From: Candidatus Pacebacteria bacterium RIFOXYA1_FULL_38_18
Lineage (GTDB): Bacteria; Patescibacteriota; Microgenomatia; UBA1400; PJMF01
Direction: 5' to 3'
Length of the DNA stretch: 62,056 bases
Assembly (NCBI GenBank): GCA_001787405.1
Contig: MFWV01000001.1
Span: 1 to 62,056, forward strand
The notes beneath the pieces were generated by a model that did not search any database, was not told the DNA's origin, and was given only the letters and a program-made list of their open reading frames with translations. This document shows, in pieces, positions 5,100 to 36,793 of the stretch (positions within the stretch are counted from its first letter, which is position 1; each line of letters starts with the position of its first letter). A program made the translations under genes and the position numbers.

Positions 5100-5116
5100 T
5101 ATAATTTATTTTATTT

Positions 5117-5475
5117 GCGCACAACTCGTAAGCCGGATTCTGTTTAAGCAAGATTTATCTATGCCGAAGCCTGATGACCTTGTGCCGCCGAGGCGGAACG
5201 ATAGGGAGTAGGTCCATTAAGGTCAAGGTCGTTCGTTGCAGCCGGGAGGATTGCCATCTCGCCGAGGCGGGATACCCAGAAGCTTGGTCGTTTCACTCGG
5301 CGCCACCCGATTCGTCACTGTTGCTCTAACTGGCTCTCATCTGGCCGAAACCTGATGAGATCTCCGCTTTTCAACGGACACCGTCTACTCTGCTGTCCGG
5401 ACTTTCCTCTTTTAGTCTTTTTTTTTCGATTGTGTCGAAAGCCAAAGTTTTCGAAGTGCTTGCCCGGTTGTGCGC
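5117..5475 (-). ncRNA. rnpB: RNase P RNA
   Basis: Minus strand carries GAGGAAAGTCCGG and AACAGAATCCGGCTTA (the two P4 strands), with P1 formed by GCGCACAAC/GTTGTGCGC. Confidence 0.95.
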
Positions 5476-5523
5476 TCCTCTATTATAGCTTTTTAGCGTC
5501 AGGAAAGCAATTTAAATTCAGTC

Positions 5524-6492
5524 TTATTTTAGCCTGGGAACAATGATTTTCCAAGCTTTTTCCTCTAGATTCTCTTGATCGGTTTTGAACCACTCGATTT
5601 GAGTTTGTTTTTTCCACCAAGTTTGTTGACGCTTGGCATATTTAAATTCAGCCAAAACCCAAGCTTCTTTGAGTTTTTCCAAGGGTAGTTCTCCATTTAG
5701 ATAATGATTGATTTCTGAGTAGCCCAAACTAGCTTTGGCTTGCAAATCTGGTTTGGGATGATGAAATTCAAACTGTTTTACCTGAGCCATCACTCCCTGT
5801 TCAATGCGATCATCAACTCGTTTGGCAATTTTTGCTTGAAGAACTTTGAGCGGTAATTGTAAACCAAATTGGACCACTGGCCGACAAATAATTGGCGATC
5901 TAGTGGGTAGTTTGGCTCGAGCCAGTTCAAGAGCTCTAATTAATCGCCGAGGATTATTTCTGTCAGAATGATTCATTTTTTCCCAGCGAGCAGTCCAAGC
6001 TTTTTTGAGTTTGGTTTGCAACTCTGCCAATGATCTCAGTTCTAGTTTTTTTCTTAATTGTTTATTTGGCTCAATCATCACGGTGGTGGCTGGATTGAAG
6101 ATTTGTTGATGATAGAGTCCGGTACCACCTACCACGATTAATGCTGTTTTTTCATCAATAGTTTGCCAAAGAAGCTGAAAAAGTTTTTGAAAATGAGCCA
6201 CTGACCACTCTGCTTCCCCAGGCACACAAGCAATACCATGCAACTCTATTGATCGATTGGTTTTTTGAAAATAAGGATAAGGAAAATGATCATTTTTGAG
6301 TTGTTGAAAGCCAGTGGGAATATCAGCTCCGGTAAGAATTTCCAAACCTGCAAAGACTTGTTTGGAATCAGCAGAAAGCAATAAAACTTTTTTAAAGCCC
6401 TGATCAATCAATTTTTCTGCCAATTGCAGTGCCAGATTGGTTTTTCCAGTGGCGGTTTGACCGACAACAGTTAACAACAGTTTTTTTTCCAT
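5524..6492 (-). CDS. miaA: tRNA dimethylallyltransferase
   Basis: GQTATGKT, SADSKQVF, VGGTGLY, NPRRLIRALE and YAKRQQTW motifs. Confidence 0.93.
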   Translation of the reverse strand: MEKKLLLTVVGQTATGKTNLALQLAEKLIDQGFKKVLLLSADSKQVFAGLEILTGADIPTGFQQLKNDHFPYPYFQKTNRSIELHGIACVPGEAEWSVAHFQKLFQLLWQTIDEKTALIVVGGTGLYHQQIFNPATTVMIEPNKQLRKKLELRSLAELQTKLKKAWTARWEKMNHSDRNNPRRLIRALELARAKLPTRSPIICRPVVQFGLQLPLKVLQAKIAKRVDDRIEQGVMAQVKQFEFHHPKPDLQAKASLGYSEINHYLNGELPLEKLKEAWVLAEFKYAKRQQTWWKKQTQIEWFKTDQENLEEKAWKIIVPRLK

Positions 6493-7929: not shown

Positions 7930-9222
7930 ATGAAAAAAAACTTTTTATTTGTTTCATTTGATGCTCTTATTACTGATACCGCTTGGCAGGTAGTTAAAGA
8001 GGGTCACAATGTCAAGTTTTCTATTGACGACAAAAGCTGCCAAGATATCGGCAATGGTTTTATTCCCAAAACTAAAAATTGGCGCGCAGAATTGGATTGG
8101 GCAGATATTGTCATCTTTGATGATGTTTTGGGACATGGAAAATTGGCAGAAAAATTGCGCAAGACTGGCAAATTGGTAGTGGGTGGCACCAAATACACAG
8201 ATCGATTGGAAGATGATCGCTCATTTGGTCAGAAAGAGCTACTTCGTCATGGTATTAAAGTACTCCCCTATCAAGAATTTAATTACTTTGATGATGCCAT
8301 CAAATTTGTTAAAGATCATCCAGGTGCTTATGTGATTAAACCCAGTGGTGAGGCTCAAAACATTAAAAAATTATTATTTGTTGGTCAAGATGATAATGGT
8401 GAAGATATTCTGCGAGTTTTGGAAGCTTATCGCAAAACTTGGAGTGAAGAAATTAAAGAATTTCAATTACAGAAAAAAGTTAGTTCTGGAGTAGAAGTTG
8501 CCGTGGGTGCTTTTTTTAATGGTCATAGATTTATTTTGCCTATCAACATCAATTTTGAACATAAAAAACTTTTTCCTGGAGATTTGGGAGTGGCAACCGG
8601 TGAAATGGGTACTAGTATGTTTTGGAGTAAGCCTAATCGTCTCTTCAATGAAACGCTCAAAAAAATGGAGCCAACCTTGAAAAAAGAAAAATATGTTGGT
8701 TATATCGACATTAACTGTATTGTTAACGGTCAAGGGATTTATCCTTTGGAGTTTACGGCTCGCTTTGGTTATCCCACTATTCACATTCAATCAGAATCAA
8801 TGTTGACACCCATTAGTGAGTTTTTATTGAAGCTGGCTAGTGGTGAGGATTTTGAGTTCAAAACTAAAGCAGGTTTTCATTTGGGCACTAGAATTGTTGT
8901 ACCACCCTTTCCTTACAACGATAAAAAGACTTACAATTCTTTTTCCAAAAACAATGCCATTATTTTTAAAAAGCCACACTTGGAAGGTGTTCATTTGGAA
9001 GATGTTAAACTCAAAAAAGGTGAATGGACAATTGCCGGCAATTCTGGAGTAATTTTGGTAATTGCTGCTTCTGGAACAACTATGAAGCAGGCACAAACTC
9101 AAATGCGCAACCGCATCAAAAACATCGTGATTCCCAATATGTACTATAGAATTGATATTGGCAATCGTTGGTATGAAGATAGTGATAAGCTTCATTCGTG
9201 GGGTTATTTGCGAGAAATTTAA
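7930..9222 (+). CDS. PurD-like ATP-grasp ligase (phosphoribosylamine-glycine ligase family)
   Basis: RLEDDRSFG, VIKPSG, TGEMG and LEFTARFGYP motifs; canonical PurD N-terminal GGREHA absent. Confidence 0.75.
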   Translation: MKKNFLFVSFDALITDTAWQVVKEGHNVKFSIDDKSCQDIGNGFIPKTKNWRAELDWADIVIFDDVLGHGKLAEKLRKTGKLVVGGTKYTDRLEDDRSFGQKELLRHGIKVLPYQEFNYFDDAIKFVKDHPGAYVIKPSGEAQNIKKLLFVGQDDNGEDILRVLEAYRKTWSEEIKEFQLQKKVSSGVEVAVGAFFNGHRFILPININFEHKKLFPGDLGVATGEMGTSMFWSKPNRLFNETLKKMEPTLKKEKYVGYIDINCIVNGQGIYPLEFTARFGYPTIHIQSESMLTPISEFLLKLASGEDFEFKTKAGFHLGTRIVVPPFPYNDKKTYNSFSKNNAIIFKKPHLEGVHLEDVKLKKGEWTIAGNSGVILVIAASGTTMKQAQTQMRNRIKNIVIPNMYYRIDIGNRWYEDSDKLHSWGYLREI

Positions 9223-9226
9223 TAAT

Positions 9227-10447
9227 ATGATAAAAAACATCGCCAAAATTTTATTGGTTTTGTTGTTTTTGTTGATAACAGTCAATCCTATTTTTGCTCA
9301 GGAGCAAAAAGCCAATATCTATTTTTTTTGGGGCGAAGGTTGTCCGCATTGTGAGCGAGAAAAACCATTTTTAGAAACACTGGAAGAACAATATACTGGA
9401 GTTAAGGTTTATGATTTTGAAGTTTGGCACAATGCTGATAATCGAAAATTAATGATTGAAGTTGGTCAAAAACTAAACACCAATATCAATGGAGTTCCTT
9501 TTACAGTAGTGGGAGAAGAGTATTTTGTTGGTTGGCTGGATGAACAAACTACTGGTACAGCCATTGAAAATGCCGTGCAGGATTTTTTGGAAAATGATGG
9601 ACACGATTTGGTGGGAGAAATTCTAACTGCTAGTTTACAACCGACTGAAACAAAAGAAACTCAGCGTGAATCAGAGAATCAAACAAGATCGGCGGTACTT
9701 GAAGAAATTGATTTGCCAATTGTTGGCAAGATCGATACCAGCAATCTTTCTTTGCCTATTTTAACGATTATTCTGGGTGGTTTGGATGGATTCAATCCCT
9801 GTGCTATGTGGACACTCATCTTTTTAATCGGTTTACTACTGGGCATGGAAAATAAAAAAAGACGTTGGATTCTAGGAATAACTTTTATTGTTGCCTCTGC
9901 TTTTGTTTACTTCTTATTTATGGCAGCTTGGCTGAATTTACTTTTATTTGTTGGTTTTATTATTTGGGTAAGAGCCTTGATAGGTTTATTGGCTTTGGTG
10001 GGTGGTGGTTATAATTTGAAAGAGTTCTTTGTTAATAAGGATGATGGTTGTAAGGTAACGGGCAATGAAAAGCGTCAAGCTGTTTTTGAAAAATTGAAAA
10101 ACATCACTCATCGCAAACAATTTTTACTGGCTATGGGTGGTATTATTCTTTTGGCTTTTGCAGTCAACTTGGTTGAATTGATTTGTTCAGCTGGCTTGCC
10201 GGTAGTTTTTACTCAAATTTTGGTTTTGAGTAATTTAGCCCCGTGGCAGCATTATGCCTATATGTTGCTCTATATTTTTATTTTCATGCTAGATGATTTA
10301 TTGATCTTTTTTATGGCTATGTTTACTTTGAAAATGACTGGTATCAGTACCAAGTACAGTCGATTCTCTCACCTTGTTGGCGGTTTGCTGATGCTAATTA
10401 TTGGTTTGTTATTGATTTTCAAACCTGAATTATTAATGTTTGGTTGA
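9227..10447 (+). CDS. thioredoxin/glutaredoxin domain fused to CcdA/DsbD-like membrane domain
   Basis: Signal peptide, CPHC, GVP cis-Pro loop, DGFNPC and ELIC membrane cysteines, multiple TMs; start at ATG 9227. Confidence 0.8.
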   Translation: MIKNIAKILLVLLFLLITVNPIFAQEQKANIYFFWGEGCPHCEREKPFLETLEEQYTGVKVYDFEVWHNADNRKLMIEVGQKLNTNINGVPFTVVGEEYFVGWLDEQTTGTAIENAVQDFLENDGHDLVGEILTASLQPTETKETQRESENQTRSAVLEEIDLPIVGKIDTSNLSLPILTIILGGLDGFNPCAMWTLIFLIGLLLGMENKKRRWILGITFIVASAFVYFLFMAAWLNLLLFVGFIIWVRALIGLLALVGGGYNLKEFFVNKDDGCKVTGNEKRQAVFEKLKNITHRKQFLLAMGGIILLAFAVNLVELICSAGLPVVFTQILVLSNLAPWQHYAYMLLYIFIFMLDDLLIFFMAMFTLKMTGISTKYSRFSHLVGGLLMLIIGLLLIFKPELLMFG

Positions 10448-10513
10448 GTTTAAATGATCAATGCGATTTTTATTTTTTAGAATTCAAACTAAATCGTGCG
10501 GTAGAATAAAAGT

Positions 10514-11500
10514 ATGAATAGCATTTTTCCCAAAAAATTAAAACCAGGAGATCATCTTCGAGTAATAGCTCCATCAAGATCTTTGGGTTTACTAGGTCAA
10601 GAAACTATTTCAATTGCCAATAAACGTTTGCAAAAAATGGGTTTTGAGTTAAGTTTTGGTAAATACGTCAAAGAAATGGATGATTTTGCTTCAACAACTA
10701 TTGAACATAGATTGGCAGATTTACACGAAGCATTTGCGGATCAATCAGTAGACGGAATTTTGACTGTCATTGGTGGCTTCAACAGCAATCAACTGCTCCA
10801 ACATCTTGATTGGGCAATTATCAAAAACAACCCCAAAGTTTTTTGTGGATATTCTGATATTACGGCTCTCAATAATAGTATCTATACCAAAACTGGCTTG
10901 GTAACTTACTCGGGCCCCCACTACTCTACTTTTGGTCAAAAACTCAACTTTGAGTACACTCAAGAATATTTTGAAAAAATACTGATGAGTGACCAACCAA
11001 TTGAAATCAAACCTAGTTCGCATTGGTTTGATGATATGTGGTGGTTAAATCAAGATGAACGCCAAGCAGAAAAAAATACTGGTTATACAGTGATCAATCC
11101 TGGCACAACTAACGGAACTATTCTGGGAGCCAATTTATGCACCCTGAATTTACTTCAAGGCACCGAGTTTATGCCTGATTTGACTGGAGCAGTGGTGTTT
11201 GTGGAAGACGACGACCAAACATTCCCCGCTCTATTTGATCGTGATTTGCAATCATTGATTCACTTGCCAAATTTTAAAAATGTAAAGGGTTTGGTGATTG
11301 GTCGTTTTCAGAAAAAAAGCCAAATGACCGCCGAACTACTCCGTCAAATCATCAAGTCCAAAAAAGAGCTAGCTCATATTCCGGTAATTGCTGAAGCCGA
11401 TTTTGGTCATACTGATCCCAAAATTACACTCCCAATCGGCGGAAAAGTGGCATTATCTGCTGATCAGAATGGAGCTAAAATAACTTTTCTTGAGCATTGA
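10514..11500 (+). CDS. S66 family LD-carboxypeptidase / MccF-like
   Basis: IAPS, IGGFNSN, GYSDIT, FVED and FGHTDP motifs. Confidence 0.92.
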   Translation: MNSIFPKKLKPGDHLRVIAPSRSLGLLGQETISIANKRLQKMGFELSFGKYVKEMDDFASTTIEHRLADLHEAFADQSVDGILTVIGGFNSNQLLQHLDWAIIKNNPKVFCGYSDITALNNSIYTKTGLVTYSGPHYSTFGQKLNFEYTQEYFEKILMSDQPIEIKPSSHWFDDMWWLNQDERQAEKNTGYTVINPGTTNGTILGANLCTLNLLQGTEFMPDLTGAVVFVEDDDQTFPALFDRDLQSLIHLPNFKNVKGLVIGRFQKKSQMTAELLRQIIKSKKELAHIPVIAEADFGHTDPKITLPIGGKVALSADQNGAKITFLEH

Positions 11501-11562
11501 TAATTGAGCCATTTAATCAATCACGAAAGAAAACTGATTCAAAATGATACAATGCTGTTATT

Positions 11563-11958
11563 ATGAAATATCCAGAGCAAAAAGAACCATGGATTCAAAG
11601 AATTGATGGCATTCCTAATCCTACTGGTCAGGCCGCAAAAGAGTTTGTAAAAAGAAAAGGAAGAGCAATTGGAGCTGGAATTCATACGGTAGAAGAAAAA
11701 GTTATTACTGGTTGGGGTGATGAATTTAATTATGACGAATTAAGTCCAGAAAATAAGCAATTAATTGATTGGTTGTTTGATACAGATTTAGACCTTGAGA
11801 TTGAATTTCAGGGTTTGAAAGCAGGTGAAGTCTGCGCTGATTTATTAAATGGCTATTATCCGCAGAATATGAATTTAGAGAGCTCTATGACGTGGATTGA
11901 GAATCTTAGAAAAAAAATCCTTATTAAAAAAATAATCAAAAAAAGACGCCCAAAATAG
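11563..11958 (+). CDS. hypothetical protein
   Basis: 131-aa ORF with a TACAAT box 9 nt upstream. Confidence 0.6.
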   Translation: MKYPEQKEPWIQRIDGIPNPTGQAAKEFVKRKGRAIGAGIHTVEEKVITGWGDEFNYDELSPENKQLIDWLFDTDLDLEIEFQGLKAGEVCADLLNGYYPQNMNLESSMTWIENLRKKILIKKIIKKRRPK

Positions 11959-12190
11959 TTTTTTTTGTGTTTGTGACCATCCTAGAACTTCCTAATATAA
12001 ACTCAATAATTACTGACCTAGTTGTTAAACTCGAGCAAGACTTTCTTGCTTGATGTCTAGACTGCTCACCGCCATAGCGAATTTATGAAGTGTGCGATGA
12101 GTGTAAAACCTTTTGGAGTCCTTCATAGTGTCAGAGAGTGAGTAAAGGTTGTGCCGTACTCAAAATGAACATATCGGAAGTAATAATATA

Positions 12191-12245
12191 AAAAAACCTG
12201 GTGGTTATCGATGAGTGGTTACTCAAAGATAATTATTCCACCAGG
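12191..12245 (-). terminator. long-stem intrinsic terminator
   Basis: CCTGGTGG...CCACCAGG with nested TTATC/GATAA and GAGT/ACTC pairs, followed by a T-tract on the minus strand, downstream of 12288-12797. Confidence 0.7.
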
Positions 12246-12287
12246 CTTATTGTTGCACTTCTCGCGAAGTTCAATTCGCCTTTGCTT

Positions 12288-12797
12288 TTAGTTTCGGTTA
12301 CGCCAGTGGTGGGGCTTCTTGCCCCTCCAGCACTGCCTTGAAATGTCCGCTTCGTTGTGCTGTTTCTGACGGGCACGCTTCTGCTTTACGTGCTGTTTTT
12401 GAAGGGCGCGCTTCTGCTTTGCGTGTAATTTCTCATAGGCACGCTCCTGCTTTATGCGCTGTTTCTGACGGGCACGCTCTCGCTTTGCTTCTCTGCGAGC
12501 CTCAATCTTTTTTTCCCTGTCGAATGGAATTTCGTTGGGATAGGGCCCAATATCAGATATTCTGCTGTCGGTAAGCGCTCGCTTCCACCAATAAAAAATG
12601 AGGTTTGGTTTCGAGAACCTAGTCACGGTTATCTTGACCTCGTTGAACATGAAAGTGATTGGTCGACCTTCACGTTTCGACAGCGTAATGGCTTCCGCGA
12701 TAGTATTACTTATTCTCGACCCCGCCATTACATCAAAAACACCATCCACTTCTTCATAAAGGTTCATTATATCCTCCAGATTCAGATTGTTTGACAT
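12288..12797 (-). CDS. hypothetical protein with basic 11-aa repeat C-terminus
   Basis: 169-aa ORF with its own promoter and terminator; four K-x-x-RA-x-x-K repeats. Confidence 0.7.
   Translation of the reverse strand: MSNNLNLEDIMNLYEEVDGVFDVMAGSRISNTIAEAITLSKREGRPITFMFNEVKITVTRFSKPNLIFYWWKRALTDSRISDIGPYPNEIPFDREKKIEARREAKRERARQKQRIKQERAYEKLHAKQKRALQKQHVKQKRARQKQHNEADISRQCWRGKKPHHWRNRN
12358..12489. repeat. 4 x 33-bp degenerate coding tandem repeat
   Basis: Units resemble tgctgtttctgacgggcacgcttctgctttacg and encode KRERARQKQRI / KQERAYEKLHA / KQKRALQKQHV / KQKRARQKQHN. Confidence 0.85.
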
Positions 12798-12978
12798 GCT
12801 TTCGCATGGCTATCCGAATGGTATAGCACTTTAGGAACCAGTAAGTGTTTCCCAAGGTGCTATCCACTCGGTAAGGAGGATAAACTTTCCGCAATTTTTT
12901 AAAGTGCAAGATTCCAGAAGGTAAGCCGCTACCAAGCAACAATTGCTAGGCTTAAACCTGCCCTCTTTCGTCTGGGGG

Positions 12979-13006
12979 AGAATACACAATCCCGGCAAAA
13001 AGTCAA
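12979..13006 (-). promoter_or_regulatory. sigma70-like promoter
   Basis: TTGACT-N16-TATTCT on the minus strand, about 180 nt upstream of ATG 12797. Confidence 0.5.
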
Positions 13007-13526
13007 TATTATAGGGTAGTATTTTAAAGTAAATTGGTATACGAAGACACAAATTATCACTTAGTTATTTATACTACAAGTATGGAGCCTCAGCCTGGAC
13101 GCTGACGATCAACAAAATACAGCATAAGGTTATTGAAATATGTAAACAATTACACGGCCAACTGCCTCTTAGGGGTATATTCCCTACAATTGAGGGGTTG
13201 GTGGCGGTTTTAGGTAAAGGATAGCGAACAATATATGATAGGGAGTTGTGGTGCACGCACCCAACGTCGTGCGGGCGATCACTTCTCCACGGGATCAATT
13301 TTCACTATTTGTGAACCAACTGTCTCTGGGGTGGAACACCTTAGTTGATTATATGAGGAAAGTTGAGTTAATTATACCCAGGTTCATTTCTCCGGAGAAA
13401 ATAGGAATCCAGACGTTAGCAACTGACTACTTACCCACTGGGTAATGGAATAAAATGATCGAATCAATAGATGAACATTGAATTCTCGGAAAAATTCTTC
13501 AAATCAATGCTAGAATCATTAATTAT

Positions 13527-14093
13527 ATGAAGAAAATTCTAATTTTTTTGGGGTTAGTTTTTTTACTTTTCTTAGTACTTAAGACATTTAAGAACAACTC
13601 AGGAGAACCTGTTTCACAACCAATGGATGAAAACGAGAAATTGCAAGAAGTAGTGGATAGCAGTGTTGAAGTTGTCGAAAAAGCCAAGAAAGCTATCTTG
13701 GACGAAGATATAGATTTTTTAGTAGAAGAAACTACAACATTTGATTTTGAATGTGAACAAGAACTTATGGGAAATAAACCAGGAGAAAACGTTGAAGAGT
13801 GTAAAACACAAGATTATTTTGTTGCCTACCCAATAGGAATAATTGAAGCCAATGGCACTGTTGTTCCCGAAAGACAGTACAGAGAGTTTTTAAAAAGTTT
13901 ATTTGATCAGAACAACTTTGAGTTCTCCAAGGAGTATAAAGAGGGAGATTTTCTCTATCTTGGGGAGGGCTACAGTCTAGGATTTTTAGATAAAGAACAG
14001 GGAGTATTTCTTTTGGTTGAAATTAATCAGGATGGAAAAATAGTATTGGCTTATCAAACTAATCAGGATCTTTTTGAAGATTATTTAAGGTAA
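13527..14093 (+). CDS. hypothetical membrane-anchored/secreted acidic protein
   Basis: N-terminal hydrophobic anchor; TAGAAT box upstream. Confidence 0.7.
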   Translation: MKKILIFLGLVFLLFLVLKTFKNNSGEPVSQPMDENEKLQEVVDSSVEVVEKAKKAILDEDIDFLVEETTTFDFECEQELMGNKPGENVEECKTQDYFVAYPIGIIEANGTVVPERQYREFLKSLFDQNNFEFSKEYKEGDFLYLGEGYSLGFLDKEQGVFLLVEINQDGKIVLAYQTNQDLFEDYLR

Positions 14094-14100
14094 TTTAGCT

Positions 14101-14349
14101 ATGAAAAAGAATAAAATTCTATCTTTAAACTCACTAATTTTTCTACTCATCGGAATAGCACTGGGTTTTCTCCTCTCACCCAATGACTCAAACTCTAAGT
14201 TAGAATATGGGGAAACAGGGCTTCCCAAGAACTGCAGAGCTATAATTAGATCTAATTATGTGGGCTATAGGTTGGGAGAGTTTGATGCCGATGGAGCTTT
14301 AGATTCTATTAATAGGAACTGCGGTGAGTTTGGTTATTCTTGGAATTAG
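14101..14349 (+). CDS. small membrane-anchored protein with two Cys
   Basis: N-terminal TM; TGLPKNCRA...RNCG. Confidence 0.65.
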   Translation: MKKNKILSLNSLIFLLIGIALGFLLSPNDSNSKLEYGETGLPKNCRAIIRSNYVGYRLGEFDADGALDSINRNCGEFGYSWN

Positions 14350-14377
14350 ACTTATTATTTTGGGGAAAACATTTTCT

Positions 14378-14698
14378 TTAACTTTCAAAACTCTTGAAAA
14401 TCACATCATTCTCATAATCGTTCATCAGCCTGATTGGGATTGGAACTTGTTTATCAACTAGAGTTGGTTTCATTTGTTGCTTCGCTTTGCCATCTATCCT
14501 ATCGCCAATTTCCTTAATAGCTGTAATATCTCCGCTTATCGCCCTGTTGAACAACGCCTCAGCTACCAATTGCTTGTAATTCTTGCCAGATTTATCATCC
14601 ACTCTCTCAGACACCTCCTCAATTACTTCAGACCAAGCTCTGCCCTTATGAGGTCTGCCAGCTCTGTTAATATTTGGGTCGTTTTTAGTAAAAGGCAT
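14378..14698 (-). CDS. terminase small-subunit-like protein (DUF5681-type)
   Basis: MPFTKNDPNINRAGRP N-terminus and A..GD..AIKEI.DRIDGK helix motif, recalled from phage TerS-like proteins. Confidence 0.6.
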   Translation of the reverse strand: MPFTKNDPNINRAGRPHKGRAWSEVIEEVSERVDDKSGKNYKQLVAEALFNRAISGDITAIKEIGDRIDGKAKQQMKPTLVDKQVPIPIRLMNDYENDVIFKSFES

Positions 14699-14859
14699 TG
14701 TTTAACTATGGAATAACAATAACTACTAACTCTATTTTACCCGTTAGTTCGCATAGCCTTTACATTTTTGAGCAATTTAGCCAAGTAGTGATCTGAGGTG
14801 TAAAGTAGTTGCTCCAACTTTGAAATAATACTTATAGGGCTAGATTTAGCCAACGTATT

Positions 14860-15018
14860 ATGACAATTGGAAAAGCTAGAAAACTACTAGGGAGAAAAGC
14901 AAATCATCTTACTGATGAAGAGGTAAGAATAATATTGAATTCAATGAAGATGTTTGCAGAAGTTTGCTATATCAAGTTACTCGATAATAGAAGCACGTTA
15001 GCAAATCAAGTAGAATAA
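14860..15018 (+). CDS. 52-aa helical protein immediately upstream of the recombinase
   Basis: Below ORF-track cutoff: MTIGKARKLLGRKANHLTDEEVRIILNSMKMFAEVCYIKLLDNRSTLANQVE; stop codon 4 nt before the recombinase ATG. Confidence 0.7.
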   Translation: MTIGKARKLLGRKANHLTDEEVRIILNSMKMFAEVCYIKLLDNRSTLANQVE

Positions 15019-15022
15019 CAAT

Positions 15023-16720
15023 ATGAAACCCCAAGCAGTAATTGTCGCACGTGTATCTTCTTCGAAACAAGCCAATGAGAACGATTCGCCTAATCAACAA
15101 ATGAGAGATGGTATAGATTTTGTTGGAAAACAAGGATGGGTAGTTGACAGGACAATGAGTTTTGTAGAATCAGGAAGAAAATCAGAAAGAGAGTTTTTTA
15201 ATGAGGTTATTGACTATTGTGTTGATAGAAAAAACAATATTTCTTATTTAGTTGCAAGGGATATTAGTCGCTTTACTCGTGGAGGCGGCGTTGAGTACAG
15301 GCAGTTGAAAGATAGATTAAAAAAAGCAGGCGTCCAACTTCAAGATACGCAAGGGACGATACAATCAGACAAGAACTCAATGGAAAAGTATGGGCTTGAG
15401 TATTCCTGGAGTCGTTATTCTCCATCTGAAGCAGAGGAAATAAAACAAGCTGACCAAGCAAAAGATCAAGTTAGGCAATCTTTAACACTAATGTTGGGTG
15501 CAGAAATTGAATATGTTAGAGAGGGATATTGGAACAGGAGACCTCCATATGGGTTTGCAAATAAAAAGATTCAGACTGAGGAGCACGGCATAAGAACCAT
15601 TCTGGTTGAAAAACCCAGCGAAGGTATATTTATAAAGAAATTGTTTAGTATGCGATCAAAAGGGATTCATTCTGATGAAGAAATAGTAAGAGAAGTAAAT
15701 GCGTTGGGTTATAAAAGTAGGAAGTATTTCAGAAGAGATAAAAGAACCAAAAAGCCTATTGGTGCGGGAGGAGAAAAACCTCTTACAATCAAACAACTTC
15801 AAAAATATGTTAAAAATCCTATCTATGCAGGGGTAATCTGTGAAAAATGGACTCACTACAAGCTCGTTAAGGGCAGATTTAATGGTTTGGTTGACGTAGA
15901 TACCTTTAATCAGGCAAATGTCGGAAAGGTGATGATTAATGAAGACGAGACGGGAGTCTTCTTCTTAAAGCACGGAAAGCAAAATGAGGATGGGAGAATA
16001 ATAAAAAGAAGAACTAACAACAACCCTTTTTACCCTTATAAAAATGTTGTTTTATGCCCTATCTGCAAAAATCCACTTAAAGCGAGTGCGTCTACAGGAA
16101 AACTGGGTAAAAAATATCCTGCCTACCATTGCAATAGGAATCACGAATATTGGAGGAAATCGAGAGAAGATCTCCACGAAGTTGTTTATTCTTTTATCAA
16201 GAAGATACGTTTTAGCGATGAGTACATTACGTTATTTGAAGCCTCTTTTCTTGAGGTATGGAAAAATAAAAGAGATGAGACTCTGATGGAAAGTGAACAA
16301 GCAGAGAGAAATGTTGTTGATCTATTAGTAGAGCAAAAAAGTATTCGAGATGCAATCAAGATAACTACGAACAAGGCTATGATTCGTGCTTATGAAGATG
16401 ATTATGAAAATATTGAATTAAAAATACAGTCTGCCAGAGAGTTCAGAGCAGGCAAAGAAAAAAGGGAGCTTGACGCCAAGCTCGCAGTTAAAAGTGCAGT
16501 TTACTTAATGGAACACCTAGAAGAATTACTGATAGATCAGGAAAATCCCCTACAACAACAACAGTTGTTCGGACTGATGTTTGAGGAATTCCCTAATTAC
16601 AACGATTTACTTAGTGGAACACCAAAATTATCCCTTGCTTTCAAGCTAAATCAACAAAATGTTTTGTTAAAATCCGATATGGTGACCCCACGGGGAATCG
16701 AACCCCGGTTGCCGGGATGA
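15023..16720 (+). CDS. large serine recombinase (integrase)
   Basis: ARVSSSKQ catalytic Ser, ESG, DISRFTR, PPYG, NPIYAG, CPIC..YHC Zn ribbon and a coiled coil. Confidence 0.93.
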   Translation: MKPQAVIVARVSSSKQANENDSPNQQMRDGIDFVGKQGWVVDRTMSFVESGRKSEREFFNEVIDYCVDRKNNISYLVARDISRFTRGGGVEYRQLKDRLKKAGVQLQDTQGTIQSDKNSMEKYGLEYSWSRYSPSEAEEIKQADQAKDQVRQSLTLMLGAEIEYVREGYWNRRPPYGFANKKIQTEEHGIRTILVEKPSEGIFIKKLFSMRSKGIHSDEEIVREVNALGYKSRKYFRRDKRTKKPIGAGGEKPLTIKQLQKYVKNPIYAGVICEKWTHYKLVKGRFNGLVDVDTFNQANVGKVMINEDETGVFFLKHGKQNEDGRIIKRRTNNNPFYPYKNVVLCPICKNPLKASASTGKLGKKYPAYHCNRNHEYWRKSREDLHEVVYSFIKKIRFSDEYITLFEASFLEVWKNKRDETLMESEQAERNVVDLLVEQKSIRDAIKITTNKAMIRAYEDDYENIELKIQSAREFRAGKEKRELDAKLAVKSAVYLMEHLEELLIDQENPLQQQQLFGLMFEEFPNYNDLLSGTPKLSLAFKLNQQNVLLKSDMVTPRGIEPRLPG

Positions 16721-16754
16721 AAACCCGATGTCCTAACCGCTAGACGATGGGGCC
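16680..16754 (-). tRNA. tRNA-Glu(TTC)
   Basis: GGCCCCA/TGGGGTC acceptor stem, TCGGG-TTTTCAT-CCCGG anticodon arm, GGTTCGATTCC T-arm, CCA end. Confidence 0.95.
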
Positions 16755-30965: not shown

Positions 30966-31955
30966 ATGAAAAGAATCTTTGTTAGCACTCTCTTAGCTTT
31001 TTTGCCAATCTTGACTTTGACTGCATCAACGGTCCAGGCTAGTGAATTTGGTATGCATATTTTACATCCGCAAGAAATTTCTCAAGCAAAAACTTTTCTG
31101 ACCGATGAAACAAATCAAGCTAATTGGCACTATATCACGATTCCTCTCACTCTGGATGATTTAGATAGAACTGCCCAGTGGCAAGAATTTTTTCGTATCG
31201 CCAGAAAAGAACAGTTAATTCCTCTCATTCGTTTGGCTACTCGCTTTGATACCAAGCTTGGTGCTTGGCAAATTCCCACCCATAAAGACATTGTTGATTT
31301 ATTTACTTTTCTCAATCAATTTGAATGGCCTACTGACGAGCGATATGTGATTGCTTTTAATGAAGTGAATCACGCGCCTGAATGGGGCAATCAACTTGAT
31401 CCGGCTTCTTATGCGCGTGTTTTGAAATTTACAGCCAGTTGGGCTCATACCGAGAACAAAAACTATCAAGTTTTACCGGCAGCTATGGACCTGGCCGCTC
31501 CCAATGGCGCTCAAACCAGAGAAGCCTTTGATTATCTAGCGCAAATGTATGCTACTGATCCCGAAATCTTTGATTATCTTGATGTTTGGAACTCTCACTC
31601 CTATCCCAATCCAGGTTTTAGTTCCTCCCCCACTCGCTCTACTCAAAACTCAGTGCGTGGTTTTATTCACGAATTAGCTTGGTTAAAAAGTAAAACTGGA
31701 CGTGATTTCGAAACTTTTATTACCGAAACCGGTTGGATTAACACCCCGCAAACTTCTCGTTGGTTGACTGATTATTATCTTTACTCTCTTCAACATGTTT
31801 GGTCTCATCCCCAAGTAAAGGGTGTCACTCCTTTTTTGCTCAAAGGAGATCCGGGTCCGTTCTCTGAATTTGGTTTCTTGGATTACGCCGATCAACCCAC
31901 GGCTCAATATGACGCCGTGAAGGAAGCGCTGAGACTTTTCAAAGAGAAATCTTAA
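30966..31955 (+). CDS. secreted clan GH-A glycoside hydrolase
   Basis: Signal peptide, FNEVN acid/base, HSYP and ITETGW nucleophile motifs. Confidence 0.75.
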   Translation: MKRIFVSTLLAFLPILTLTASTVQASEFGMHILHPQEISQAKTFLTDETNQANWHYITIPLTLDDLDRTAQWQEFFRIARKEQLIPLIRLATRFDTKLGAWQIPTHKDIVDLFTFLNQFEWPTDERYVIAFNEVNHAPEWGNQLDPASYARVLKFTASWAHTENKNYQVLPAAMDLAAPNGAQTREAFDYLAQMYATDPEIFDYLDVWNSHSYPNPGFSSSPTRSTQNSVRGFIHELAWLKSKTGRDFETFITETGWINTPQTSRWLTDYYLYSLQHVWSHPQVKGVTPFLLKGDPGPFSEFGFLDYADQPTAQYDAVKEALRLFKEKS

Positions 31956-32039
31956 GCTGGACGAACTATCCCCTATATTTTAGAATAACTTGGTTGTCTT
32001 ACTCAAGAATTATGGTACAGTTGGAGAGATCAACACTGT

Positions 32040-32114
32040 GCGGGTGTAGCTCAACGGTCAGAGCTTCAGTTTTCCAAACTGATGACGAGGGTTCGACTCC
32101 CTTCACCCGCTCCA
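32040..32114 (+). tRNA. tRNA-Gly(TCC)
   Basis: GCGGGTG/CACCCGC acceptor stem, TCAGT-TTTCCAA-ACTGA anticodon arm, GGTTCGACTCC T-arm, TCCA end. Confidence 0.96.
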
Positions 32115-32158
32115 AAAGTGACAATGAGATGTACATAAAATGACAAAAATCAACAAGC

Positions 32159-32383
32159 ATGAAAGAACAAGTTCAAAATTGTAATGTGGGTAAGACTTTT
32201 GAAGTAGTTATCAATAGTCCATTTTTTCCAGTAAATGGTTCTGGTGTTGTTTTTCAAGAATGGTGTAATAAAGAGACAAGTGAATTTCCTGACGGTTACG
32301 CGCATCTTTGTACTGATACTAATCGACAAAATTTACTCTGCCATAATACAAGGTGCGAAAATCAAAAAGCTGAAGGAAGCTAA
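32159..32383 (+). CDS. small Cys-rich hypothetical protein
   Basis: 74 aa with 5 Cys; ATG directly after the first phased repeat block. Confidence 0.55.
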   Translation: MKEQVQNCNVGKTFEVVINSPFFPVNGSGVVFQEWCNKETSEFPDGYAHLCTDTNRQNLLCHNTRCENQKAEGS

Positions 32384-32460
32384 ACGTCTTTTAGTATTTT
32401 ATAAAACTTGGAATATCCATACGGATTTTTAATTGATCAGGTTTTAAAATAAGCTCAGGA

Positions 32461-32514
32461 GAGTGAATAAGACGGAATAAGTTTTCGAAAAAGCAATGGG
32501 AACAGGCTCGAGCT
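32461..32514 (+). repeat. cassette right-end repeat copy 1
   Basis: gagtgaataagacggaataagttttcgaaaaagcaatgggaacaggctcgagct; near-identical copy at 35455-35509. Confidence 0.9.
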
Positions 32515-32587
32515 GTGTGCCGTCACCAACTCCAGACGTGACAGAAATATACATAAATTAACAATAAAGTTACAATAAATAACATCC

Positions 32588-33259
32588 ATGAATCCAATAG
32601 ACATATCAGCAATAACGTCAGAACAGCTTAGAGCTAAAGCATATTTAGCTTCATTTCCTGAATACTACGAATTGGCATCAGTGATAGAAAATAGTCTTTG
32701 GCATAATAATCAAAATGTTTTAGATCATATGATTGGAGTTTTTGAAGGATTGGAAAAAATACTTAAGTTTGAAAATGTTTCCAATTCACAAAAGAGCTTA
32801 ATAAAAAAGTATTTATCAGAGGTTATTGGCAACAAAACTAGACTGGAAATTCTCACTGTTGCAACTTTACTTCATGATATTGCCAAAATTGACGTGTTCG
32901 TTAAAAGACCAGATGGAACAGCTGGATGTCCAGGGCATGAGCTAATTGCAGCTGGAAGAGTAAAAAACTTTGCAGAAAGATTTGATCTCGATGATAAGGC
33001 AGAATCATATGTGGAACGGATAGTCAGATATCACGGTTTTATATCCGAAATACTCAACTTGATGATCGCTAGTGGAAATCGGGAAAAGTATTTGACTATA
33101 TTTACTAAAACAGTGGGAGATATTTCAATTGAACTGATATTACTAATGCACGCTGATTTATTAGGTTGTGACTTAGAGCAAGGCGATAAAAAGGGATACG
33201 ACGATAGAATTGATTTCTTAGGTTGGATGTTGCAGAAGCAACTTAAAGAAATGAAATAA
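32588..33259 (+). CDS. HD-domain hydrolase resembling the HD module of CCA-adding enzymes
   Basis: FPEYYEL..V.EN..WH...VLDH, LLHDIAK, GHELIAA, VRYH and AD motifs. Confidence 0.8.
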   Translation: MNPIDISAITSEQLRAKAYLASFPEYYELASVIENSLWHNNQNVLDHMIGVFEGLEKILKFENVSNSQKSLIKKYLSEVIGNKTRLEILTVATLLHDIAKIDVFVKRPDGTAGCPGHELIAAGRVKNFAERFDLDDKAESYVERIVRYHGFISEILNLMIASGNREKYLTIFTKTVGDISIELILLMHADLLGCDLEQGDKKGYDDRIDFLGWMLQKQLKEMK

Positions 33260-33383
33260 AATTCTGTCTCTGTGGCTAAAATGGATCACTTGTGCGCCAC
33301 CAGTTCCCTAAAAGTAAGGTATTTTTACCACGATGATCATTTGGTAGTCTAATTATATTTTCGACGAATGATTGGAATAATTT

Positions 33384-33749
33384 TCACAGACGATAACGGG
33401 GATCCATCAGAGATACAGATATAAAATATATTACAAGGAATAGAAGAGAGATCATTACATATTTTTCGAGTTTTGAGTTTTCTTTATTTTTCATAACTTT
33501 TGGTATTGCCACGATAAGAAAGACTTCAATCCCAAATGAAATAAATCCTAAAGCAATAATTATTTGTTGGATAAGTGGTGGAAATGCTGATAAATCTTCA
33601 TTTACATTTCCAAGCAAATCTAAAAAAGTAGGAATTTTAAGGACATCTTGAGTAATATCTTTCAAAAAATGAACAATAATAATCAAAAAAATAATGGGAA
33701 GGGAGAAATGCCAAATTCTATTTAAATATTTCTTCATAAAGCAAGCCAA
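33384..33749 (-). CDS. hypothetical 3-TM membrane protein
   Basis: Three hydrophobic segments, HFLKDITQD motif; likely starts at MKKYL. Confidence 0.65.
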   Translation of the reverse strand: MACFMKKYLNRIWHFSLPIIFLIIIVHFLKDITQDVLKIPTFLDLLGNVNEDLSAFPPLIQQIIIALGFISFGIEVFLIVAIPKVMKNKENSKLEKYVMISLLFLVIYFISVSLMDPRYRL

Positions 33750-34007
33750 TTTTACTCCATTTGTTAAGACCCCATCTTCAAATGTTTTTTAAAGCCTGAA
33801 GTTGTAAAATAAGGTCAGTTGTAATGTAATAGTGAAGACCGTTTTTTACTTTAGAAATAAGAGGTAAATCTGGGTCGAGTAGATATCCTTTGATATACTC
33901 GTCCTAGCTAAACAGGTTCGAGCCAATTACGGTTACCCGCTCCAATAGTGACAGAAATAAACAGAAAATTACTAGGAAATTACATAAATTTATAATGAAT
34001 TTACAAT

Positions 34008-34751
34008 ATGACTGCTGAAATGAAGAATATTACCTTTGATCAAATACAATTGGAGGCAGAATCTTTCGCAGTAAATTATAGAAAAACTCACGATGTTCCA
34101 CCTTTCCCATCAGATGTTCAATTACAAAAATATAAGAAAATATTAAATACAAAATATTCTCAAGTTGTTGAACTAGTTAAAAAACGGTTGTCGGAAGTAG
34201 AGTCCGAAGGCGGACATGGTTATGAGCATCTAGAGGATGTTGCAACTAGAGCTGGATTCATAGCCGAAACTGAATGCGATTTCAGGGGTATTAAAAACGA
34301 CCAGAGAAAAGAAATTATTAATGAGACAGTACTAGCTGGCCTGTTACACGATATTGAACGACACTTAGGATTTGGCGAAGACCACATGGTCAATGGGGCT
34401 GATACTGCAATAAGAATTCTTGCCGCAGTTGGGATTAAGGGTAATGTTGTTGCCACAGTTGTTAGAAATCACGACCATATGAATTTTAGCCCAACAGACC
34501 AACTTTTAGAAATAGTTTTTGGTTCAGTTTTTGACGCAGATCATTTTAGATATGGATTGGAAAGAGAAGATACTTTTTGGAGAATGGAAGAGAAAAAAGG
34601 AAAGGAAGCTTCAGAGGTAATTCATGATTATAAGTTTTTGCCAGCTTATATTCACGTTTGGAAAACTAACTACGGAAAAGAAGTGGGCCCGAAGTATATT
34701 GAATTTGGATTAGCTGTGGCGAAACATGTTGAAAAAACTTTTAGCGTGTAA
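34008..34751 (+). CDS. HD-domain phosphohydrolase
   Basis: GHGYEH, LLHDI, H...GA, NHD and FDAD motifs. Confidence 0.85.
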   Translation: MTAEMKNITFDQIQLEAESFAVNYRKTHDVPPFPSDVQLQKYKKILNTKYSQVVELVKKRLSEVESEGGHGYEHLEDVATRAGFIAETECDFRGIKNDQRKEIINETVLAGLLHDIERHLGFGEDHMVNGADTAIRILAAVGIKGNVVATVVRNHDHMNFSPTDQLLEIVFGSVFDADHFRYGLEREDTFWRMEEKKGKEASEVIHDYKFLPAYIHVWKTNYGKEVGPKYIEFGLAVAKHVEKTFSV

Positions 34752-34823
34752 AGTCGGTCCCTGCAGCTAAAATGAATTGCCAGCGCACCAATAGTGACAA
34801 TGGTCACTACAAATGTACATAAA

Positions 34824-35405
34824 ATGACAGAAAATAACATTAAAGCAATACTCTTCGATTTTATGGGCGTTTTATTATTCAAAAGAGGCAATTACGTTCC
34901 AGATCCCCTTGTTGACGAAATAGATAACATAATTGGAAGTGTTACTAATGATCAACTATTTGAAGAAGAAACTTGCAAAAAATTCCATTTAACTAAAAAT
35001 GAATTTGATGGTATTCTCGACAAAGTTATAAACAAGTATGAGCCTTATCAACCACTTTGGGACTCATTACCTAATTTACGAAAGAATTACAAATTGGCAA
35101 TCGTAAATAATGGCACTAGTTTGACTCTGTCAAAATTTAAATCCAAACTTGGTTTAGATATAAAATTTGATGCTTTTGTTTCATCAGCATTAAAAGGTAT
35201 GAAAAAACCTGAGCCAGAAATCTACTTATTCTCGGCTAAAAAACTTGGTGTTATTCCCAGTGAGTGTCTGTTTATGGATGATTCGTATGAAAACATAAAA
35301 GGCGCAAATCAAGTGGGAATGAAAACGTTGTGGTGGAACAAAGAGAAAGAGAGAGATGAAATGTTACAAGAGCTTATCTCTTTAGTTAATATTTCTCAAA
35401 GCTAG
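34824..35405 (+). CDS. HAD family phosphatase
   Basis: FDFMGVL, KKPEPEIY and FMDDS..NI.GA..VGM motifs. Confidence 0.88.
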   Translation: MTENNIKAILFDFMGVLLFKRGNYVPDPLVDEIDNIIGSVTNDQLFEEETCKKFHLTKNEFDGILDKVINKYEPYQPLWDSLPNLRKNYKLAIVNNGTSLTLSKFKSKLGLDIKFDAFVSSALKGMKKPEPEIYLFSAKKLGVIPSECLFMDDSYENIKGANQVGMKTLWWNKEKERDEMLQELISLVNISQS

Positions 35406-35454
35406 AAATACTCAGATGTTCTTTTTGCAAATTTAGTTTTAGGATAGGATCAAG

Positions 35455-35509
35455 AGTGATAAGACGAAATAAGTTTTGAAAAAGCCATAATGGGAACAGG
35501 CTCGAGCTA
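35455..35509 (+). repeat. cassette right-end repeat copy 2
   Basis: gagtgataagacgaaataagttttgaaaaagccataatgggaacaggctcgagct. Confidence 0.9.
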
Positions 35510-35588
35510 GTTAAAACATTTTTTTCACCTAGTTAAACTCTAGCGTTCCCCACTTTGCAATTTTTGCTAATTGATGTAATATTCTGAT

Positions 35589-36266
35589 ATGAATAGATTG
35601 GGAAAGATAGAAACTGCGGTATTAGATTTTGATGGAGTGATGGCTATTTTACCTCCTGAATTCTGGATTGATGTCAGGATAAAAGCGTTGGAAGAGATCG
35701 CCGGTAAGAAAGTAACTACAGATGACGAGCTTTATAGGAAATTTGTAAAGCTGGGTGAAGATCCTCAAATAGGTTGGAAAGAAGCATATCTTCGTTTGGG
35801 AGGTGATTTCTTATTCTTTTCAAGGATTGTAAATAGTGCAGAAAAAGCGGCATATCTCAAATTTGATTCCGAACTTTTGGAAACGATCAATGCTTTGCGA
35901 GAAATAGTAAAAAAGATAGTGGTTTTTTCTGGTTCCAATTATGGGTCGGTGGTGGATGGTTTGAACGTGCTTTTTAATGATATGGGTACATTGAAAATGA
36001 TTGATCGAATCGTTACATCAGATCTTTTGCAAGAAACGACCAAGCCAGATTTAACTGCTTATCAACAAATGTTAAAAAAATGCAGTATTAATCCCAAAAC
36101 AGCAATGATGGTGGATGATTCTCCTGCAGAAATTGCCAGTGCTAAAAAAGCAGGAATGAAAGGAGTGTTGGTAGGCAATCATCCAGAATCAGTTTTAAAG
36201 AAAATCAAACCAGACTTACAAATCCCCAATATTTATAGTTTAATATCGATTTTGGCTGGAAATTAA
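35589..36266 (+). CDS. HAD family hydrolase
   Basis: LDFDGV, KPD and MVDDS..EI.SAKKAGM motifs. Confidence 0.88.
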   Translation: MNRLGKIETAVLDFDGVMAILPPEFWIDVRIKALEEIAGKKVTTDDELYRKFVKLGEDPQIGWKEAYLRLGGDFLFFSRIVNSAEKAAYLKFDSELLETINALREIVKKIVVFSGSNYGSVVDGLNVLFNDMGTLKMIDRIVTSDLLQETTKPDLTAYQQMLKKCSINPKTAMMVDDSPAEIASAKKAGMKGVLVGNHPESVLKKIKPDLQIPNIYSLISILAGN

Positions 36267-36334
36267 AGATTGTAAAAACACACAGGTAAAAAATTGAGGA
36301 AGTGGGTTGAGTAAAGTATATAATTGCCAGTAAG

Positions 36335-36793
36335 ATGATTTTTTTTCAGAAAATATTTCTACTTTGTTTTGCTTTTTTCAATCTAATTGTTTTTTTTAAA
36401 GCTCTTCATGAATGCAAAGTCAAGAAAAATGCTTTTGGTTTGACTCCCCCACTCACTTTAATTGGTGCTTTTGTTTGGGCAGATGCGGTAGTATTTGGTT
36501 TGTTTTGGACATTAATTTCATTGGTTAGCTGGTGGCTTGATGATTGGTTGTTATTTTTATTGATAGTGTCACTGTTTTGGGTGGTACGCAGTGTTGGAGA
36601 AACGATTTATTGGTTTAATCAACAATTTTCGACTATTGATCGTAATCCACCAGAAAAACATTTATTTTATTTTATTTTTCAGAATGATTCTGTTTGGTTT
36701 GTTCATCAAATTATTTGGCAATCTATAACCGTAATTTCCTTAGTGGCTTCTCTTTATTTTGGCTGGGCTTGGTTACAGGCACTGCCCAAGTGA
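36335..36793 (+). CDS. hypothetical membrane protein
   Basis: Four TMs, Trp-rich, ETIYWFNQQF. Confidence 0.7.
   Translation: MIFFQKIFLLCFAFFNLIVFFKALHECKVKKNAFGLTPPLTLIGAFVWADAVVFGLFWTLISLVSWWLDDWLLFLLIVSLFWVVRSVGETIYWFNQQFSTIDRNPPEKHLFYFIFQNDSVWFVHQIIWQSITVISLVASLYFGWAWLQALPK

Follow-up and report, generated by a model that had tools for sequence, protein, structure and literature searches.

The ccr genes of the staphylococcal cassette chromosome (SCC) encode large serine recombinases (LSRs), and in streptococci the accretion of integrative and conjugative elements (ICEs) brings att-flanked, nonautonomous cis-mobilizable elements (CIMEs) into tandem with an autonomous element, whose recombinase mobilizes them. 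Composite SCC islands are described as tandem elements at the 3' end of rlmH, some of them without recombinase genes (10.1101/336396; PMC13739063). Tandem arrays of genomic islands at tRNA genes, as handled by the Islander and TIGER software, are likewise a known kind (PMC9580842). In archaea, SSV-type "suicidal" tyrosine integrases have the attachment (att) site inside the integrase gene, an arrangement that one review calls exclusive to archaea (PMC8371274). A prophage with "a phage integrase" has been described from Roizmanbacteria, in passages that give no details of its site (PMC6509639). Here, we analyze a window of 62,056 nucleotides from Candidatus Pacebacteria bacterium RIFOXYA1_FULL_38_18 (contig MFWV01000001.1, positions 1 to 62,056), a member of the Candidate Phyla Radiation (CPR), in which an array of small cargo genes separated by related junctions stands behind a gene for tRNA-Gly(TCC). 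The left arms of these junctions are the displaced 3' end of an LSR gene. We consider it likely that the array is a tandem pile-up of attachment-site scars, together with stranded or hitch-hiking cargo, from LSR phages that target tRNA-Gly.

The genome that contains the window (G000) comprises 13 contigs and 831,884 bases and is 96% complete. The same-genus set consisted of this genome and three relatives, G001, G002, and G003, and the wider comparison set of 140 genomes of the family, from 57 genera. Tallies over the 140 genomes include the unpublished genome G093, which matched only the tRNA-Gly antisense query and which no claim uses. Transfer RNAs were called with ARAGORN and domains with Pfam; a junction profile was run by nhmmer, and the peptide encoded in the left arm was represented by a second profile, A3. 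The database for peptide searches held 1.84 billion metagenome proteins. A search of sequencing runs for the window stretch listed 18 runs, from groundwater and soil. A literature search of limited coverage found no paper on serine recombinase genes that span the phage attachment site (attP) at tRNA genes and none on such tRNA-Gly arrays in CPR bacteria.

Junctions behind the tRNA-Gly gene

The last 10 nt of the tRNA-Gly gene (32105 to 32114) are the core common to the junctions, and the repeat continues on either side of this core as a left arm (P arm) and a right arm. The junction features are listed below.

32040 to 32114, plus strand: tRNA-Gly(TCC), left half of the bacterial attachment site attB (ARAGORN; Rfam tRNA, 72 bits; repeat family D3)
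32115 to 32158, plus strand: right arm copy 1, GTGACA...ACATAAAATG type, reaching the start of the first cargo open reading frame (ORF) (repeat families D4 and D6)
32382 to 32534, minus strand: left (P) arm J2, a decayed LSR tail ORF, with its core at 32525 to 32534 (A3 match at 32382 to 32495, E = 4.7e-4, 1 stop)
32535 to 32587, plus strand: right arm copy 2, GTGACAGAAAT type (repeats D1 and D2)
33784 to 33944, minus strand: left (P) arm J3, an LSR tail ORF in its long form, interrupted by in-frame stops, with its core at 33935 to 33944 (A3 match at 33784 to 33942, E = 6.8e-16)
33945 to 34007, plus strand: right arm copy 3 (repeat families; junction comparison)
34752 to 34823, plus strand: junction J4, with a type B-like left part (see below), a CCA-N3-GTGACA core, and a right arm of the copy 1 type (D3, D4, and D6)
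35389 to 35514, minus strand: left (P) arm J5, ending short of the core, at the right end of the array (A3, E = 1.6e-10; repeats D8 and D10)

The motif CCA-N3-GTGACA is found on the plus strand at 32112, 32532, 33942, and 34788, with one further, unrelated match at 2731. These five matches in the window compare with 0.38 expected, and five were reached in 0 of 100 shuffles. Genome-wide (831,884 bases), the motif has six matches, namely the four array junctions and two unrelated ones, and matches of the junction profile to the whole genome are confined to the tRNA-Gly locus (J2, 32477 to 32575, E = 4.9e-13; J3, 33881 to 33987, E = 3.6e-24). Copies of the underlying 19-nt repeat family are spaced 420, 1410, and 846 nt apart. 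A sequence-only reading of this DNA had described short GTCAC-N11-GTGAC junctions at which the tRNA 3' end recurs, and had proposed them as sites of site-specific recombination. Arms, cores, and prophage ends in relatives agree with such sites, and the core holds; the extent was underestimated, as the repeat extends 65 to 270 nt leftward from the core and about 45 nt rightward, and a fifth arm lies at 35389 to 35514. The left arm contains AACAGGYTCGAGC, with copies at 32501, 33911, and 35495. The arm that resembles tRNA-Gly is present in three of the four junctions and in one truncated arm, always in direct orientation and behind a tRNA gene that is itself intact. Tandem island arrays display such copies of the tRNA 3' end at their junctions, and J4 is the exception here. 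The in-frame stops of J3 are one TGA and one TAG by tblastn. Past J5, homology with the relative G002 returns within about 40 to 70 nt (alignment with locus L014). An Rfam scan of 31900 to 36400, with E up to 10, returned the tRNA and no other RNA family.

Junction J4 had been read as a full site at 34779 to 34798. Its CCA-N3-GTGACA core is confirmed, and its left half is type B-like and not an arm of the tRNA-Gly kind. The J4 core (34781 to 34790, ..AGCGCACCA) is closer to the 3' ends of the tRNA-Arg genes of this genome than to that of tRNA-Gly, and it may, from this resemblance, be the relic of an element with another target.

The left arm encodes a recombinase tail

Read from the core on the strand opposite to the tRNA, the P arm encodes a conserved peptide of 38 to 90 aa that starts E-R/L-V-T and ends near ...LK.HL.I.SF. 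Among 25 copies, insertions and deletions are in frame, there is no conserved start codon, and the pairwise differences at codon positions 1, 2, and 3 are 0.23, 0.17, and 0.31, highest at position 3. In the 140 family genomes, the peptide lies in ORFs of at most 137 aa, save for one spurious match of 368 aa, and 21 of the 58 A3 matches have no stop in the matched stretch. Against the 1.84 billion proteins, the peptide profile gave 115 clusters, nearly all of them small ORFs. In three proteins, P0115, P0101, and P0035, the peptide forms the C-terminal tail of an LSR. P0115, of 369 aa, has the Pfam domains Recombinase and Zn_ribbon_recom; it is 57% identical over 312 aa to the LSR found at tRNA-Gly in the family genome G024 and then runs into the tail peptide. 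We also considered whether the peptide is a small gene in its own right. No Pfam family matches it, no start codon is conserved among its copies, and the LSR-fused forms fit better.

Source DNA of P0115 was sought in three scans: the viral scan gave no match, the genome scan only one unrelated LSR, and the metagenome scan four distant LSRs, one of which ends in an unannotated tRNA-like 3' end. On that metagenome contig (L053, 2230 to 2330), the LSR ends in an antisense T-arm and an acceptor-like sequence for which ARAGORN made no tRNA call; by its sequence, this end may belong to a tmRNA or an intron-bearing tRNA.

The P arm also differs from the tRNA in spacing. Counted from GGTTCGA to GCTC, it is 12 nt in each of 11 tRNA-Gly genes and 17 nt in each of 31 P arms, and the alignment is gapless there. 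The attP half-site of serine integrases is longer than the attB half-site, with the outer motif about 5 bp further out. The offset of +5 nt in the P arm fits this difference for the left half; inspection of the right half by eye gave no clear result.

Prophages at tRNA-Gly genes of relatives

In G024, an LSR of 553 aa (Resolvase, Recombinase, and Zn ribbon domains by Pfam) is encoded antisense through a tRNA-Gly(TCC) gene, syntenic with the window locus, so that its final residues are encoded by the tRNA. The next contig of G024 opens with a P arm whose tail ORF is intact, and the conserved genes for the Na/Ca exchanger, elongation factor P (EF-P), and tRNA-Lys come after it. In two IMG/VR proviruses, of 54 and 59 kb, a single contig covers both ends. 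At one end of each, the LSR is fused to tRNA-Gly (TCC or CCC), and at the opposite end stand tail fibre, lysis, and AbrB-like genes and a P arm. The LSR end of a prophage was also seen in G137, and in G074, a contig terminates in an LSR that is fused to antisense tRNA-Gly. The sequence-only reading had suggested looking for a recombinase that co-occurs with the motif. In relatives and proviruses, an LSR lies at tRNA-Gly, and not the expected tyrosine recombinase. The cognate LSR was identified by Pfam in G024 and G137 and by a PF00239 match together with clade identity in the proviruses G156 and G157. The four tRNA-Gly LSRs are 67 to 97% identical to one another; in the pair at 97%, one LSR sits at tRNA-Gly(CCC) and the other, in a second genome, at tRNA-Gly(TCC).

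The arrangement extends beyond tRNA-Gly. In all 12 of the family LSR genes examined, the 3' end falls within a tRNA gene on the opposite strand (Gln, Glu, Asn, His, Pro, Leu, Val twice, Lys, and Gly three times). The integrated genes stay open through the tRNA antisense and encode proteins of 529 to 590 aa. LSR elements of this CPR family thus seem, as a rule, to carry the attachment site inside the 3' end of the recombinase gene. In G092 (L059), a stretch of LSR C-terminal peptide (...ASAAPNDFAISQMV...) is repeated, inverted, at 5911 to 6186 on the plus strand, just upstream of the same LSR at 4399 to 5985 on the minus strand.

An LSR fused to the tRNA at one prophage end and a tail arm at the other imply that the LSR gene spans attP. 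In the phage, the last 38 to 90 codons would then lie in the left (P) arm, which would also mimic the T-loop and acceptor end of tRNA-Gly. Integration into tRNA-Gly would swap the LSR tail for tRNA antisense, and the native tail would stay at the far end of the prophage as a scar of P arm and core, of the attR type. By its position, the GCTC core is where the LSR would cut. Homology breaks at GCTC in one unit shared between relatives and at the prophage ends.

Variable content behind the tRNA

The cargo genes of the window lie between the junctions as follows.

32159 to 32383, plus strand: cargo 1, a 74-aa Cys-rich ORF of no family (ORF list; Pfam scan)
32588 to 33259, plus strand: cargo 2a, a 223-aa HD-domain protein (Pfam HD, E = 5.3e-8)
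33384 to 33749, minus strand: cargo 2b, a membrane protein of 117 to 121 aa, of no family (ORF list; Pfam scan)
34008 to 34751, plus strand: cargo 3, a 247-aa protein that matches HD weakly (Pfam HD, E = 0.06, short of the cut-off)
34824 to 35405, plus strand: cargo 4, a 193-aa HAD hydrolase (Pfam Hydrolase, E = 8e-18)

The Pfam scan found no recombinase among the ORFs of the array, as had been claimed from the sequence. The array itself had been described as 4 to 5 units of 0.4 to 0.85 kb with one gene each; the second unit in fact measures 1.41 kb and has both an HD gene and a membrane protein gene.

Across the four genomes of the genus, the upstream gene, the tRNA, the downstream membrane protein, the Na/Ca exchanger, EF-P, and tRNA-Lys are all kept, and the genes directly behind tRNA-Gly differ in each of the three relatives. 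The distance from tRNA-Gly to tRNA-Lys is 6297 nt in G000, 6214 nt in G001, 3410 nt in G002, and 3092 nt in G003. Variable content between conserved flanks is the pattern of a tandem island array and bears out the earlier expectation that cargo would vary among relatives. Two findings had been named that would refute the cassette reading, an operator motif spread through the genome and an identical gene order in relatives; what we see is a motif restricted to the locus and differing content. In the other array loci compared, the five cargo proteins of the window had no tblastn match at E <= 1e-5, which rules out shared cargo for those loci.

A BLAST search with J3 gave matches in 30 of the 140 family genomes, from 19 of the 57 genera, often as several copies 0.5 to 1.7 kb apart. 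The mapped loci lie behind tRNA-Gly genes with the anticodons TCC, GCC, and CCC. In the relatives mapped, array units measure 0.4 to 4.8 kb, cargo is found on either strand, and no recombinase is found inside any of the LSR-less arrays. Their cargo includes an APH-type kinase, an M19 dipeptidase, a ceramidase, an MBL-fold protein, an SDH protease with a helix-turn-helix protein, and a sugar-nucleotide operon. A unit of 1361 nt, with an AAA_14/DUF4143 ATPase gene and a P arm, is 80% identical in two genera, and its homology ends exactly at the core. In several arrays, a decayed LSR 3' end follows directly after the core, from which it follows that whole elements once stood in tandem and then decayed.

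The right arm and the type B repeat

The right arm has the layout GTGACAGAAAT..ACAGAAA..TTACATAAA, with ACAGAAA-like boxes phased at 11 nt. It follows 11 of the 31 P-arm junctions, and a copy adjoins the attR of a whole provirus. The arm extends to the start codon of the following gene, the cargo ORF starting 0 to 25 nt beyond. The right arm may be a host-side half-site carried along with the modules, or else the left end of a mobile cassette. A sigma-70 promoter was looked for in it by eye, and no consistent spacing of -35 and -10 elements was found. At the right ends of phages (L068, about 370 to 400; L070, L065, and L067), some 100 nt from the terminus and beside an AbrB-like gene, there is a double ACAGAAA box; it is similar to the right-arm boxes and may, from its sequence and position, be a binding site of a phage protein.

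A second repeat, type B, occurs within the second unit.

33262 to 33360, plus strand: type B repeat (repeat comparison with relatives)

It had been noted before as a half site at 33296, which is in fact part of this separate repeat of about 95 nt. Type B has its own distribution, in 12 of the 140 family genomes, and no Rfam match. In tRNA-Gly prophages (L020, 9148 to 9241; L063, 14014 to 14107; L064, 5892 to 5985), it stands upstream of the LSR gene and on the LSR strand, and the tRNA-Gly prophages of G137 and G074 also contain it. Its orientation with respect to the tRNA is reversed in LSR-less arrays. Judged by these copies, the type B repeat of the window would be a further phage-derived relic, though inverted here.

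Recombinases of the genome

Two LSR genes were found in G000. The first lies in the window at 15023 to 16720 on the plus strand and encodes 565 aa, of which the last 13 codons are the antisense of tRNA-Glu(TTC) (16680 to 16754, minus strand). Small genes at 12288 to 14698 accompany it, and the region probably represents a small integrated element, the displaced tail of which was not found in a motif scan of 9000 to 15100. The second, on contig C3 (77205 to 78794, minus strand), encodes 529 aa and ends in tRNA-Asn (77145 to 77219, plus strand). It is 60% identical to the tRNA-Gln LSR of G144, and a neighboring gene is similar to one next to the G144 LSR. Both LSRs of G000 are only 21 to 27% identical to the tRNA-Gly clade, and a search of G000 with P0101 gave no match. 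PF00589, the tyrosine recombinase domain, matched only C7:29240 and C11:157645, both Xer-sized and off the array contig. Neither in G000 nor in the five relatives searched did a tyrosine recombinase stand beside an array; in the relatives, these enzymes are separated from the arrays by more than 30 kb or lie on different contigs.

With no cognate LSR in G000 and the tail ORFs broken, the units of the window would be LSR-less remnants or hitch-hikers of the phage system, and as their arms are decayed, the array may be a fossil. Its modules are probably immobile now.

Origin of the array

The nature of the junction arms, the full two-ended prophages in relatives, and the variable cargo were observed directly, and it is on these that we base the proposed origin from LSR phages. 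In the window, four sites of the P-arm-core kind and one truncated arm would bound the small cargo genes. Two routes may have brought the units into tandem. By one route, a phage would excise with one of several attR sites and so leave or take modules, for which canonical reactions suffice. By another, integration would take place next to a resident unit, which is noncanonical.

Several points weigh against this origin. The canonical LSR reaction joins attP with attB only, and canonical LSR chemistry alone does not explain several tandem sites. J4 has no left arm of the tRNA-Gly kind. The conserved right arm is not a decayed LSR 3' end. A strict right-arm pattern gave 20 matches in 15 of the 140 family genomes, about 12 of them junction-like, and a reversed control gave 6; with such rarity, the right arm is not what generally flanks a native tRNA-Gly gene. 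In the 96% complete G000, no LSR of the tRNA-Gly clade was found, and there is no sign that the units of the window ever moved within this genome. The compared arrays contain no relatives of the window cargo, so that its phage origin is putative.

Some of the same facts would suit active, nonautonomous mini-cassettes with attP-like sites of P arm, core, and right arm, shuffled in an integron-like manner by an LSR. Such cassettes would move either by a phage LSR acting in trans or by phages that take up and drop cassettes through a choice among attR sites. Both arms are conserved across genera, and the full form of P arm, core, and right arm is seen in 11 of the 31 junctions; cargo begins within 25 nt of the right arm; the tail ORFs are open in many LSR-less copies (the 21 stop-free matches of 58); a whole provirus has the right arm beyond its attR; one unit is common to two genera, with its boundary at the core; and the right arm, being rare in the family, is hence not a native tRNA flank. 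Against this, the cassettes of the window were not found in the other arrays compared, the arms in G000 are decayed and without a cognate LSR, and units of 0.4 to 4.8 kb with genes on either strand suit remnants equally. We regard mini-cassettes as possible and rather unlikely. Doubtful to a like degree is the broader idea that tRNA-Gly genes are docking points for LSR-driven cassette exchange, at which modules are taken or left as a phage excises via different attR sites. The P arm of the site used would then become the C-terminal tail of the phage recombinase, tail ORFs would stay under selection even in recombinase-less modules, and a tail swap could switch the activity or the direction of the recombinase.

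The sequence-only reading had favored a tyrosine recombinase from elsewhere, of an integron-like or Xer-exploiting kind, that acts on an inverted GTCAC-N11-GTGAC core. There is an imperfect inverted repeat around the CCA, with one apparent compensatory pair in a relative, and each genome searched encodes one or two Xer-sized tyrosine recombinases. However, these are distant from the arrays in five of five relatives and on C7 and C11 in G000, and the spacer of 11 nt exceeds the overlap regions of tyrosine recombinases, which are 6 to 8 bp. The left arm codes for part of an LSR, and where these sites bound a whole prophage, it is an LSR gene that sits at the tRNA. We give this explanation next to no credence. 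It is also very improbable that the repeats are purely regulatory, a promoter or operator with phased ACAGAAA boxes before each gene and no link to gene gain and loss. The 11-nt phasing, the end of the right arm at the cargo start codon, and a related double box near an AbrB-like gene in phages would agree with such a role, but the motif is restricted to the tRNA-Gly locus in the genome, is tied to tRNA-Gly and LSR tail arms in relatives, and is followed by a gene content that differs in every relative of the genus. The right arm could possibly be regulatory in addition to its role in the junction.

An apparently integron-like system is thereby given a concrete and testable origin: its junctions are att sites of serine-integrase phages that infect CPR bacteria, a group of hosts for which phages and mobile elements are poorly known. 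Two features set the locus apart from routine island scars. One is a serine recombinase gene that spans attP, so that integration exchanges its C terminus; in one review, an att site inside an integrase is described only for archaeal tyrosine integrases (PMC8371274). The other is that recombinase-less modules, down to a single gene, keep both conserved arms in different genera and behind tRNA-Gly genes of all three anticodons. Should the modules be mobile, cassette capture would have a counterpart based on serine recombinases. Natural attP/attB pairs for study would also be available from the tRNA-Gly LSR clade.

Comparison with known systems

No described system of this architecture had been recognized from the sequence alone, yet tandem tRNA island arrays and SCC composite islands are known kinds. 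With integrons and clusters of attC sites lacking integron-integrases (CALINs), the locus shares mostly single-gene units, a recombination site at each junction, and the lack of a recombinase in the array. Unlike those, it has no IntI-type tyrosine recombinase nearby, and in relatives, its cargo genes occur on both strands. Its junctions show conservation of the primary sequence and are remnants of coding DNA, whereas attC hairpins are conserved in structure only, so that the junctions do not appear attC-like. No attI or common promoter (Pc) is shown here, and the integron-like capture and expression proposed earlier lacks a cognate recombinase in G000. The array is not an integron.

The locus is closer to tandem tRNA island arrays, with which it shares successive elements behind one tRNA, copies of the tRNA 3' end, and decayed units without an integrase. 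The repeat, however, is not a plain duplicate of the tRNA end, as in those arrays, but a mimic with an offset of +5 nt joined to recombinase coding sequence; the units go down to 0.42 kb, and the recombinase is a serine recombinase. SCC composite islands likewise combine LSR insertion at the 3' end of a conserved gene with repeat-bounded tandem elements, some of them recombinase-less. Here, the target is tRNA-Gly instead of rlmH, the partners are prophages of 54 to 59 kb, the recombinase gene spans the att site, and the host is a groundwater CPR bacterium. CIME/ICE accretion uses tyrosine integrases and conjugative elements, in contrast to the LSR and phages of the present system. With the SSV-type integrases, finally, it shares an att site within the recombinase gene, so that integration splits the gene. 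Here, the recombinase is a bacterial serine recombinase and the split is milder: only the last 38 to 90 codons are exchanged, and the integrated gene stays open.

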